Shown: one piece after another, positions 20,669 to 25,530 of the stretch
Layout of the letters: the number at the start of each line of letters is the position of its first letter
How positions within the stretch are numbered: position 1 is the first letter of the stretch
Virus record (IMG/VR): IMGVR_UViG_3300025645_000038
Coordinates: 100,846-164,845 of that record
Origin: a virus
Length of the DNA stretch: 64,000 nucleotides
Direction: 5' to 3' (one strand)
Translations under genes and position numbers: made by a program
Notes under the pieces: model-generated
Seen by the model: only the letters and a program-made list of their open reading frames with translations
Told to the model about the DNA's origin: nothing
The model's database searches: none

Positions 20669-22681
20669 ATGATGGAAAAATTTCAGTTATCAGAAAATTT
20701 TATAAATAAATTTAAAAGAAAAAAGCCACCATTTGGTTTCAACGGATTAGGTGAATTAGTTTATATGAGAACCTACTCAAGAATTAAAGAAGATGGTAAA
20801 AATGAGAGATGGTGGGAAACTGTACAAAGGGTTGTAGAAGGTACATACTCAATGCAGAAGAAATGGATTGAGTCTCACGAGTTAGGTTGGAATGCATGGC
20901 AGGCTCAGAAGAGTGCTCAAGATATGTATGAAAGAATTTTTACAATGAAGTTCCTACCACCAGGTAGAGGACTTTGGGCTATGGGAACTCCTATCACAGA
21001 AGAAAAAGGTTTATATGCAGCTCTTAACAATTGTGCATTTGTATCAACCAAAACAATAAAAGAAGATTATTCAAAACCTTTCTGTTTCCTTATGGATGCA
21101 AGTATGTTAGGTGTTGGAGTTGGGTTTGATACTAAAGGGGCTGATGAGATAATAGTAAAAGGAATAGATAAAGGTAGAGACGAACAATTGTTTGAAATAC
21201 CTGATACTCGTGAAGGTTGGGTAGAATCTCTAAAGTTATTATTAGAAAGTTACTTTCATGGAACTGCTTCAATGAAGTTTGATTACTCAAAGATAAGAGG
21301 CGCTGGTGAACCAATAAGTGGATTCGGTGGTGTTGCTAGTGGTTATGAACCATTAGAAGAAGTTCATGAAGATATAAGAAAAGTATTAGAAAAAAATAGT
21401 GGAGAACCAATCACAATCACTACAATTGTTGATATTATGAATCTTATAGGAAAATGTGTAGTAGCAGGTAATGTTCGTAGAACTGCTGAGATTGTATTTG
21501 GTGAGCCAGACAATGAAGAATATTTAGATTTAAAAAACTATGAAGTAAACCCACACAGAGACCAATATGGATGGACAAGTAATAATAGTATATTTGCAGA
21601 ATTGGGTATGGATTATACTGAAGCTGCCAAACGAATCGTAGATAACGGAGAGCCAGGTTTTGCTTGGTTAGATAATATGAGAAAGTATTCTCGTATGAAG
21701 AATGGTGGAGATGATAAAGACCATAGAGCTATGGGTGGTAATCCTTGTTTAGAACAAACATTGGAGTCATATGAGTTATGTTGTTTAGTAGAAACTTTTC
21801 CTGATAATCATGATGACTTTGAAGATTATGCGAGAACTCTAAAGTATGCTTATCTTTATGCTAAAACAGTAACTCTTGGTAGAACACATTGGTCAGAAAC
21901 TAACAGAGTTATGTTAAGAAACAGAAGAATAGGATGTTCGGTTAGTGGTATCGCTCAGTTCATCACTCATAGAGGATTGGGAACTTTAAAGGAGTGGTTA
22001 AATGATGGATACGATGTCATACAAGAATGGGATGATATGTACTCTGATTGGTTTGCTGTACCGAACTCAATCAAAACTACATCAGTTAAACCAAGTGGAA
22101 CAGTTTCATTGTTGGCTGGCTCTACTCCAGGTTTACATTATCCCGAAAGTAGATTTTATATAAGAAGAATAAGGGTTTCAAAACATTCAGAACTATTAGT
22201 ACCTATGGAAAAAGCAGGATATAAAATAGAACCTGCATTTGGTTCAGAGGATACTACAATGGTTGTTGAAGTACCAGTAGATGTTGGAGAGGGAATAAGA
22301 ACAGCGGCTGACCTATCGATATGGGAACAATTCAGTTTAGCTGCTTTTATGCAAAGACATTGGGCAGACAATCAAGTTAGTTGTACGGTTACATTCAATC
22401 CAGAAACAGAGGGTGAACAAATCGCACCCGCTCTAAATTATTATCAATATCATCTAAAAGGTATATCCCTTTTACCAAGACATGATTACGGAGCATATCC
22501 ACAGATGCCGTATGAAGCTATAGATGAGAAAGAGTACAATAAACAAGTTAAGAAACTTGGTAAACTTTCATTTGGTGTTATCAAAAATGAAGAGGCAGAA
22601 GTAGATAAGTTCTGTAATAACGATTCGTGTGAGATAATTCCAACGACTGGTGATAACGATGACCAAGACTATGCTAATTAA
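20669..22681 (+). CDS. nrdJ: Class II adenosylcobalamin-dependent ribonucleotide reductase (monomeric RTPR type)
   Basis: RTYSR, PPGRGL, NNC, GNVRR.A, NPC.EQ, VKPSGT.S, C-terminal C...DSC redox pair. Confidence 0.93.
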   Translation: MMEKFQLSENFINKFKRKKPPFGFNGLGELVYMRTYSRIKEDGKNERWWETVQRVVEGTYSMQKKWIESHELGWNAWQAQKSAQDMYERIFTMKFLPPGRGLWAMGTPITEEKGLYAALNNCAFVSTKTIKEDYSKPFCFLMDASMLGVGVGFDTKGADEIIVKGIDKGRDEQLFEIPDTREGWVESLKLLLESYFHGTASMKFDYSKIRGAGEPISGFGGVASGYEPLEEVHEDIRKVLEKNSGEPITITTIVDIMNLIGKCVVAGNVRRTAEIVFGEPDNEEYLDLKNYEVNPHRDQYGWTSNNSIFAELGMDYTEAAKRIVDNGEPGFAWLDNMRKYSRMKNGGDDKDHRAMGGNPCLEQTLESYELCCLVETFPDNHDDFEDYARTLKYAYLYAKTVTLGRTHWSETNRVMLRNRRIGCSVSGIAQFITHRGLGTLKEWLNDGYDVIQEWDDMYSDWFAVPNSIKTTSVKPSGTVSLLAGSTPGLHYPESRFYIRRIRVSKHSELLVPMEKAGYKIEPAFGSEDTTMVVEVPVDVGEGIRTAADLSIWEQFSLAAFMQRHWADNQVSCTVTFNPETEGEQIAPALNYYQYHLKGISLLPRHDYGAYPQMPYEAIDEKEYNKQVKKLGKLSFGVIKNEEAEVDKFCNNDSCEIIPTTGDNDDQDYAN

Positions 22682-22691
22682 AAACTTGCGG

Positions 22692-22750
22692 ATAGGCAGA
22701 CGACACACCTATACAAAAATGTGTCTTAACCAAAAACAAAGAGGAGACGT
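22692..22750 (+). ncRNA. Candidate H-type pseudoknot / anti-SD switch in the TBDR leader
   Basis: S1 ATAGG/CCTAT, S2 GACACA/TGTGTC, L2=0, A-rich L3; GTGTCTT can alternatively pair with GAGACGT, which overlaps the SD. Confidence 0.55.
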
Positions 22751-25492: not shown

Positions 25493-25504
25493 AATGGTAA
25501 ACTT

Positions 25505-25530
25505 GGGGGGAATTTATTTCCCCCCTTTTT
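25505..25530 (+). terminator. Rho-independent terminator ending the nrdJ-TBDR unit
   Basis: GGGGGGAA-TTTAT-TTCCCCCC followed by TTTTT. Confidence 0.88.

Follow-up and report, generated by a model that had tools for sequence, protein, structure and literature searches.

Why a T4-like phage should carry the gene for a complete bacterial outer-membrane transporter directly beside the gene for a B12-dependent ribonucleotide reductase is the question raised by the locus described here. The DNA that we analyzed (hereafter, the window) is a stretch of 64,000 nt, the last 64 kb of the 164,845-bp IMG/VR virus record IMGVR_UViG_3300025645_000038, for which CheckV estimates a completeness of 79%. In the window, nucleotides 20669 to 22681 (+ strand) constitute nrdJ, which encodes a monomeric class II ribonucleoside-triphosphate reductase (RTPR) of 670 amino acids (aa), and nucleotides 22754 to 25492 (+ strand) encode a TonB-dependent transporter (TBDT) of 912 aa; the spacer between the 2 genes is exactly 72 nt. 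The original prediction, made from the sequence alone, was that the phage installs its own importer to fuel dNTP synthesis, with B12 or another scarce nutrient such as nucleic-acid fragments as substrate, or else uses the protein for receptor remodelling or superinfection exclusion. The evidence presented below leads us to consider it probable that the TBDT is a functional importer, acquired from Marinimicrobia by an ancestor of a widespread marine T4-like clade and kept there as a cassette. Its substrate is most probably not cobalamin.

A complete transporter gene in a marine phage clade

Pfam searches placed a CarboxypepD_reg domain at residues 27–104 of the TBDT and a Plug domain (PF07715; 49.5 bits against a cut-off of 23.9) at residues 115–223, and no Pfam barrel model matched the protein. 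From the translation we read a signal-like N-terminal segment with K/R and hydrophobic residues (1 to ~24), a C-terminus that ends in LAVNF and thus in a terminal Phe, and a TonB-box-like motif, LEVLAS, in a flexible, low-confidence linker (residues ~99–111) ahead of the plug. An AlphaFold2 model, based on a 30-sequence alignment, was a plugged beta-barrel (pLDDT 85.5, pTM 0.80). Comparison of this model with solved TBDTs by Foldseek gave PqqU as the best match (E 3e-35) and TM scores by target of 0.70–0.80 to Fiu, FhuA, YncD, FecA and BtuB. The phage TBDT has kept all 22 columns that are invariant in the 30-member alignment; among the members are the phage protein itself, 2 copies from related phages and database entries whose origin is unchecked, at identities down to 28%. 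Fold and profile searches of the PDB returned the generic TBDT fold alone and nothing on substrate, and searches against NCBIfam (E ≤ 0.001) returned only TonB-hemlactrns (58.9 bits) and SusC (55.7 bits), both far under their cut-offs.

The gene is widespread. Homology searches recovered more than 100 proteins at 82–99% identity to the TBDT from ENA, JGI and NCBI assemblies, with a shared gene order, also seen in Tara Oceans contigs, of gp32, UvsX, exonuclease, helicase, nrdJ, TBDT, PolB and clamp loader. Among IMG/VR contigs recovered with PolB, the TBDT was directly upstream of PolB in 46 of the 51 that were informative, and the same junctions were present in more than 100 independent contigs. 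Pairwise comparisons of the window with 8 relatives gave dN/dS values of 0.11–0.24 for the TBDT and 0.05–0.11 for nrdJ; the TBDT is under purifying selection along its whole length. Its G+C content at third codon positions (GC3, 0.21) is similar to that of the phage core genes (0.22–0.31), which bears out the earlier remark that its codon style is like theirs. The arrangement that had been described, of nrdJ, a 72-nt spacer, an intact 912-aa receptor and a strong terminator between helicase and PolB, was correct in all its coordinates and features.

Could the gene nevertheless be an artefact or a dead passenger, that is, a product of chimeric assembly, bacterial contamination or a gene in decay? 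Deposited phage genomes contain hardly any complete TBDTs, and we found only 2 full-length matches among them (30% identity), both in unannotated faecal contigs. This scarcity favors an artefact to some extent. Deposited huge-phage records matched the plug region only, and they include no close TBDT; nor did other deposited phage genomes. However, the recurrence of the nrdJ-TBDT-PolB junctions in ENA/Tara, JGI and IMG/VR assemblies disposes of the concern, raised with the original prediction, that the contig might be chimeric at this point. Taken together with selection (dN/dS well below 1) and the phage-like GC3, this recurrence excludes chimerism and decay; moreover, the reading frame is intact and no cellular copy exceeds 68% identity. 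The chance of an artefact is negligible, and we count that explanation as already refuted.

Origin of the transporter and the likely host

Representatives from clustering at 50% formed a smooth TBDT family down to ~30% identity. When one genome per species was considered, the nearest cellular copies, at 58–67% identity (58–68% for Marinimicrobia copies in general), were almost all labelled Marinimicrobia, Neomarinimicrobiota or Fidelibacterota, and more distant copies (41–52%) were from Calditrichota, Ignavibacteriota, Bacteroidota, Balneolota, Rhodothermota and Gemmatimonadota. In a maximum-likelihood tree, where the cellular sequences followed phyla, all 18 phage sequences were located inside the Marinimicrobia branch (SH-aLRT 100). 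Because of this nesting, the TBDT is best read as a host-derived auxiliary gene from Marinimicrobia (SAR406), which points to the likely host of the phage; that Marinimicrobia is indeed the host appears to us very likely. The cellular origin by phylogeny is accompanied by viral flanks on both sides in 46 contigs and by selection in the virus. One phage allele (L125) grouped apart from the other phage copies, with cellular ones, and at least 2 transfers are therefore indicated.

Of 401 sampled genomes of the Marinimicrobia phylum, 204 have an orthologue, mostly in single copy, and no copy in the 401 was more than 68% identical to the phage TBDT. The host orthologues have the same AAGGAG-type Shine-Dalgarno (SD) sequence as the phage gene. 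We found no phage genes in the cellular orthologue loci, in which the neighbors were SRAP (SOS-response-associated peptidase, PF02586), tRNA, peptidase S58, DnaG and others. In the ESM Atlas, the neighbors of the TBDT were one viral cluster and 2 Fidelibacterota clusters.

Two database entries deserve separate mention. A contig in a Marinimicrobia-phylum bin (L301; G219:C161:1-1575) has a phage-type nrdJ (81%) and, at the contig end, an exact copy of the pseudoknot leader described below; either co-binning or an infected cell would explain it. Also, a nominally cellular TBDT (L010; 67% identity) on a 4.3-kb contig of a Neomarinimicrobiota metagenome-assembled genome branches inside the phage clade; it has no pseudoknot before it and no genomic context on that short contig, and may come either from a cell or from another phage lineage.

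A cassette between nrdJ and polB

An intrinsic terminator (25505–25530, + strand; 25505–25525 in a narrower delimitation) is located just downstream of the TBDT gene; its stem has 8 bp, of which 6 are G-C, and a T run comes after it. The gene for PolB, the gp43-like family B DNA polymerase (25604–28099, + strand; PF00136, PF03104), comes next, and is preceded by a putative sigma-70-like promoter that we recognized by reading the sequence (25543–25571, + strand; TTGACT, 17 nt, TAGCTT). The CTTGAC box of this promoter is conserved at the same place in all relatives. It would be a sigma-70-type early promoter, in keeping with a host in which promoters and SD sites of this type are recognized. To the 5' side of the TBDT gene are the pseudoknot leader and the SD sequence. 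The TBDT travels as a cassette of pseudoknot leader, SD, open reading frame (ORF) and terminator, with no promoter of its own, and the cassette sits between the nrdJ stop codon and the polB promoter, the latter marking the downstream border of the insertion site.

Related contigs that lack the transporter show these borders. Five of them keep nrdJ directly before PolB without a TBDT, and there was no other TBDT copy on those records. In L116 and L144/L145/L153 the nrdJ stop codon is directly followed by the polB promoter box, with neither pseudoknot nor terminator. In L118 (4380–4560), the last 3 nrdJ codons are missing and in their place are the final ~35 nt of the TBDT gene, out of frame, after which come the intact TBDT terminator and then the polB promoter; from this deletion scar it follows that the TBDT was lost from that lineage. 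The terminator is thus kept in the L118 scar and gone where the TBDT is cleanly absent, and in the TBDT-bearing relatives it is conserved with compensatory changes. Since the TBDT-less relatives retain nrdJ, nrdJ does not need the TBDT. In other relatives, different small ORFs occupy the stretch from the TBDT terminator to polB or that from nrdJ to the pseudoknot (L002:12786-13286, L008:12881-13231, and the gaps in L122 and L133), and the nrdJ-polB interval is an insertion hot spot.

In some relatives (L002, L008, L138), PolB and helicase fall to 53–65% identity while nrdJ holds 88–90% and the TBDT 82–90%, and the dS of the TBDT (0.3–0.9) is repeatedly lower than that of its neighbors (1.0–2.0). 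These differences suggest that the nrdJ-TBDT module spreads among these phages by recombination.

The pseudoknot leader

Within the 72-nt spacer we recognized an H-type pseudoknot of 34 nt (22692–22725, + strand), in which stem S1 pairs 22692–22696 with 22708–22712, stem S2 pairs 22702–22707 with 22720–22725, and loop L3 is A-rich. From the sequence we also read an SD motif, AGGAG (22742–22746, + strand), which is separated from the pseudoknot by 16 nt and from the ATG of the TBDT by 7–8 nt. A pattern scan that left the variable (covarying) stem positions free located this pseudoknot in at least 120 IMG/VR contigs, and the TBDT followed it in all 121 of the cases in which the sequence extended far enough downstream. 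Among 72 distinct sequences, all 792 of 792 pair cells were standard pairs, with none broken; 3 pairs showed compensatory double changes (in 8, 9 and 22 sequences), and controls in which the pairing was slid collapsed. The pseudoknot is a conserved RNA structure backed by covariation. An SD sequence was present in 89 of 89 distinct leaders, 11–26 nt (median 16) to the 3' side of the pseudoknot, and the linker was A-rich.

The element belongs to the phage TBDT. The phage record contains a single copy of it, which is not in the gene 32 leader, and none was found upstream of the cellular TBDT orthologues. In the 401 host-phylum genomes the scan gave 3 matches as against 3 in a reversed control, the lone exact match being a phage fragment. 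Rfam gave no match at the gathering threshold on the window, and for the leader only chance-level matches at E ≤ 10. In L133, where an extra gene follows nrdJ, the pseudoknot remains with the TBDT.

The topography of this leader is similar to that of the T4 gene 32 mRNA operator, in which an unstructured A/U-rich stretch extends from a pseudoknot to the ribosome binding site. Here, too, a compact H-type pseudoknot in a T4-like phage is joined to the SD sequence by an unstructured linker, which is A-rich; yet it precedes a TBDT rather than gene 32, and no such structure is present in the gene 32 leader of this phage. As a compact new RNA element with clean covariation, the leader is of interest in its own right.

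Two other roles for the leader were considered and rejected. An alternative pairing that would occlude the SD sequence did not qualify as a conserved feature (-4.5 kcal/mol, as against -3.9 with the SD region shuffled). A function as a stop-codon read-through element was rejected on the grounds that the distance to the nrdJ stop codon varies from 6 to 19 nt and that the L133 pseudoknot stays with the TBDT.

The B12 question

The adjacency of nrdJ and the TBDT invites the reading that the phage installs a cobalamin receptor to supply its adenosylcobalamin-dependent reductase. RTPR requires adenosylcobalamin, and some bacteria possess several B12 receptors; we count both facts for this reading. 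In every TBDT-bearing relative, moreover, the TBDT adjoins nrdJ and is probably co-transcribed with it. On the same side we counted a speculation in the literature, that phages with an RTPR might increase the uptake of B12 (PMC10547690).

The remaining evidence, however, makes this reading very improbable. No cobalamin riboswitch (RF00174) was found in the window or upstream of 10 cellular orthologues. When we searched 5 host-lineage genomes, namely the carriers of the nearest cellular orthologues, 4 of the 5 had exactly one cobalamin riboswitch, and each of these riboswitches precedes a TBDT other than the orthologue, 681–707 aa in length, for which the best NCBIfam match was TonB-B12, below cut-off (L173-L176, genomes G002-G005). 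Similarity between such a riboswitch-linked protein and the phage TBDT was limited to a marginal match in the plug (66 residues, E 0.003). The phage TBDT itself matched no TonB-B12 model (TIGR01779 or NF007926). No B12 genes were seen beside the cellular orthologues, and nrdJ persists without the TBDT in the 5 contigs described above. A cobalamin adenosyltransferase was not found in the phage record; at 79% completeness, absences from this record are weak evidence.

Comparison with BtuB also gave a negative answer, in that BtuB was no closer to the phage TBDT than were other TBDTs, either by sequence or by fold. By PDB profile, BtuB matched the plug only (E ~1e-8), more weakly than PqqU, YncD or FecA, and by fold it was 37th among generic TBDT matches. 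E. coli BtuB (PDB 1NQE; TIGR01779) and the phage TBDT have in common the general TBDT fold (TM 0.80 over the BtuB length), a plug and, on the phage side as a putative motif, a TonB box. They differ in that BtuB lacks a CarboxypepD_reg domain and is smaller by ~300 residues; the phage TBDT, for its part, has no family-level sequence match and no cobalamin riboswitch, and the host lineage has a separate BtuB-like gene. We conclude that the substrate is most probably not cobalamin, which is a negative answer to the published speculation as far as this phage is concerned. In sum, the idea of an importer that fuels dNTP synthesis is sustained in one part, since the TBDT is a complete, selected, host-derived importer encoded within the replication and nucleotide module and very probably co-transcribed with nrdJ; functional coupling to B12 is not sustained, given the findings on riboswitches, TonB-B12 models, BtuB and TBDT-less contigs. 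It should be noted that every relative seen has nrdJ, the TBDT being the variable part, so that, within this clade, comparing the occurrence of the TBDT with that of nrdJ as opposed to nrdAB has no discriminating power.

In one of the riboswitch-linked loci (L175), a 424-aa beta-propeller protein with a type IX secretion system (T9SS) sorting tail follows the TBDT; it is possibly a BtuG-like, B12-capturing surface protein.

Substrate clues and proposed function

Neighborhoods of the cellular orthologues were examined in a first set of ~70 loci and in a second set of 20 further Marinimicrobia loci, one of which repeats L011. In the first set, an exported nucleotide pyrophosphatase/phosphodiesterase (NPP; PF01663) was encoded directly downstream, on the same strand, in 8 loci; in a ninth, the NPP gene comes after a tandem TBDT copy. 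These loci are from Calditrichota, Ignavibacteriota, Bacteroidota and Balneolota, and from one Chlorobiota-labelled bin, the TBDT of which is near-identical to a Bacteroidota-labelled copy. Also in the first set, an EEP nuclease/phosphatase was directly downstream in 2 loci, one with a T9SS tail and one with a weak ExeM/NucH match, and a deoxynucleoside kinase (dNK) gene adjoined the TBDT gene in 4 Marinimicrobia loci. A dNK or NPP homologue was within 3 kb, on the same strand, in 8 of the 20 loci of the second set. In Bacteroidetes, phosphate depletion has been observed to co-induce TBDTs, phosphodiesterases and nucleases (PMC8115612). From the recurrence of NPP, EEP and dNK neighbors, we tentatively suggest that the substrate may be a nucleic-acid-derived or other organophosphate compound that feeds the phage nucleotide supply, and would call this possible rather than likely. 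Such a substrate would be apt for a gene located between those for the reductase and the polymerase in a phage with a high demand for phosphorus. Among the substrates named originally, nucleic-acid fragments thus fit the cellular neighborhoods best, and as a guess the assignment is weak.

The preferred reading, an importer acquired from Marinimicrobia and kept as a cassette, would operate as follows. The cassette would be transcribed early in infection, by read-through from the helicase/nrdJ unit. The pre-protein would be exported via Sec and folded into the host outer membrane by BAM, and host TonB-ExbBD would energize it through the TonB box. Over a long latent period, in a host that grows slowly, the TBDT would then maintain or raise substrate uptake, with the pseudoknot setting its translation separately from that of nrdJ.

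Several points weigh against this reading. Insertion into the outer membrane late in the lytic cycle may yield little benefit. TonB_C, ExbB and ExbD were not found in the 79%-complete phage record, from which it follows that TBDT function depends on host machinery. The host assignment rests mainly on one gene, and the PolB of this clade was not found in the 401 host-phylum genomes, which contained only 3 distant PolBs (33–35% identity). With regard to substrate, the orthologues on which the suggestion is based are only 41–67% identical to the phage protein, most cellular loci have no informative neighbor, and shared ancestry inflates the neighbor counts. The commonest Marinimicrobia neighbor, SRAP (13 of 20 loci), says nothing clear about transport. 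Finally, the phage record, with the same limit of 79% completeness, contains no NPP or dNK of its own.

In most Marinimicrobia loci, specifically in 13 of the 20 loci L303-L322 and in L011, L012, L017 and L019, the gene that directly precedes the TBDT orthologue, in the same orientation, encodes SRAP, an abasic-site DNA protein.

It is somewhat less likely than the organophosphate suggestion, and in our view rather doubtful, that the TBDT imports an unrelated nutrient (peptides, a metal chelate, a sugar or another vitamin) and that its position beside nrdJ is merely a permissive insertion site. Such an explanation would accord with the insertion hot spot in the nrdJ-polB gap, where the small ORFs of L002, L008, L122 and L133 are found, and with the uninformative majority of cellular loci; a peptidase S58 gene is near the TBDT gene in 2 Marinimicrobia loci, and the fold matches include siderophore, PQQ and metal transporters without preference. 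It does not account for the recurrence of nucleotide and phosphodiester neighbors in 4 named phyla as well as in the host lineage, and no SusD-like partner and no siderophore or metal genes were seen beside the orthologues.

A different kind of function, receptor remodelling or superinfection exclusion, would apply if the host orthologue were the receptor of this phage or of competing ones, and if the phage copy, or over-production of it, altered the cell surface or titrated TonB, with the result that later phages fail. TBDTs are classic phage receptors with which phages interfere, as in the case of FhuA with T5 pb5 and Llp, and this precedent counts for exclusion; PDB entries 8a8c and 8a60, cited for this precedent, were among our fold matches. 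Known exclusion systems, on the other hand, block or remove a receptor and do not add a full transporter, and an added receptor would trap progeny on debris. The 22 invariant columns, the plug and the TonB-box-like motif are all kept, and purifying selection extends over the whole length; these properties fit transport. Two further observations are more favorable to exclusion. Several diverged TBDT alleles (64–67% identity) circulate in the clade, and some relatives (L008, L009, L209, L257, L284) encode a small secreted protein with a TonB C-terminal domain (TonB_C, PF03544). The latter is 100–110 aa in length with a signal-like N-terminus and is encoded a few kb upstream of gp32 (for example L008:2196-2528); no homologue is present in the record from which the window is taken. 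Dominant-negative TonB fragments can interfere with TonB coupling, and the protein may be a matched or dominant-negative piece of TonB. On balance we consider exclusion improbable and retain the host-derived importer.

An extended version of that importer hypothesis would have the pseudoknot sense a metabolite or a phage protein (e.g., the ssDNA-binding protein) and so tune translation of a SAR406-derived importer for nucleotides, oligonucleotides or organophosphate to phage DNA replication. We rate this as unlikely, if slightly less so than exclusion. Were it true, the cassette would be the first TonB-dependent uptake system that is encoded by a virus and governed by an RNA switch of its own, and a TBDT family that is conserved throughout the FCB group would gain its first assigned substrate.

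Relation to known systems

The closest relatives of the phage TBDT constitute an uncharacterized CarboxypepD_reg-Plug-barrel family of Marinimicrobia, other FCB bacteria and Gemmatimonadota. The architecture and length are the same and the phage copies nest inside this family, but the phage gene differs in being flanked by nrdJ and polB and in having a phage-specific pseudoknot leader and a terminator of its own. With SusC/RagA (TIGR04056), the TBDT shares a CarboxypepD_reg-like N-terminal extension, a plug and a large barrel; however, the match (against a cut-off of 368 bits) covers the N-terminus only, and no SusD-like partner follows the phage TBDT, after which come terminator and polB, or was seen in the cellular loci.

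Among phage genes, the most instructive comparison is with pstS and phoA of cyanophages, which are nutrient-acquisition auxiliary genes and components of the cyanobacterial Pho regulon. In both cases a host-derived uptake gene is present in a lytic T4-like marine phage, where it presumably relieves a limit on DNA synthesis. The cyanophage proteins are periplasmic or inner-membrane components, whereas the cassette described here specifies a 912-aa, TonB-energized outer-membrane transporter derived from SAR406, with its own RNA leader. The TBDT cassette belongs with the phage auxiliary nutrient-uptake genes. With it, the functions of phage auxiliary genes reach beyond the cytoplasm and periplasm to a full TonB-energized outer-membrane transporter.

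A "TonB-dependent receptor" has been annotated in the pelagiphage Polarivirus skadi (PMC10504331); its neighbors there are tail and capsid genes, and it was interpreted as pointing to the receptor for adsorption. The 2 cases are alike in that a TonB-receptor annotation occurs in a marine phage genome; the Skadi gene differs in not specifying a full host-type importer in a replication module. We searched the accessible literature on TonB-dependent receptors encoded by phages or other viruses and encountered no account of the cassette.

SAR406/Marinimicrobia are among the most abundant uncultured bacteria of the dark and mesopelagic ocean, and to our knowledge almost no phages of these bacteria have been described. 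The TBDT gene provides a handle on the host of an abundant T4-like clade (at least 120 IMG/VR contigs), and its cellular neighborhoods provide a lead on the substrate of a conserved, uncharacterized TBDT family. Furthermore, the natural occurrence of TBDT-plus and TBDT-minus genotypes permits ecological comparison against nutrient fields.

Other features of the window

Every gene in the window is on the + strand; the GC content is 0.34 and GC skew is strongly positive. The phage is T4-like; Pfam searches gave matches to gp19 tail tube, a T4 baseplate protein, ThyX and gp32 (16114–16869), and also to a RecA/UvsX-like recombinase, a 5'-3' exonuclease, a DnaB-like helicase, family B polymerase and clamp loader. 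The DnaB-like replicative helicase (19248–20606, + strand; PF03796 DnaB_C, 6.7e-14) is syntenic in relatives; it lies upstream of nrdJ and probably shares a transcript with it. The nrdJ product matched TIGR02505 at 365.9 bits (cut-off 340), with additional matches to RNR_Alpha and RNR-II_ins_dom (PF17975, PF21995), and is 79–99% identical across relatives. For PolB, the best match in an isolate was to Microcystis phage Mel-JY01 (47%), cyano- and pelagimyophages being at 31–33%.

Two Mom-family genes (PF25680, ~150 bits each) are located at 28878–29639 and 31322–31963, on either side of the clamp-loader genes. They are followed by a DUF1599/Nmad1 gene and a PD-(D/E)XK nuclease gene, and nucleotides 31990–32373 are listed with the same module; this cluster is a probable DNA hypermodification module.

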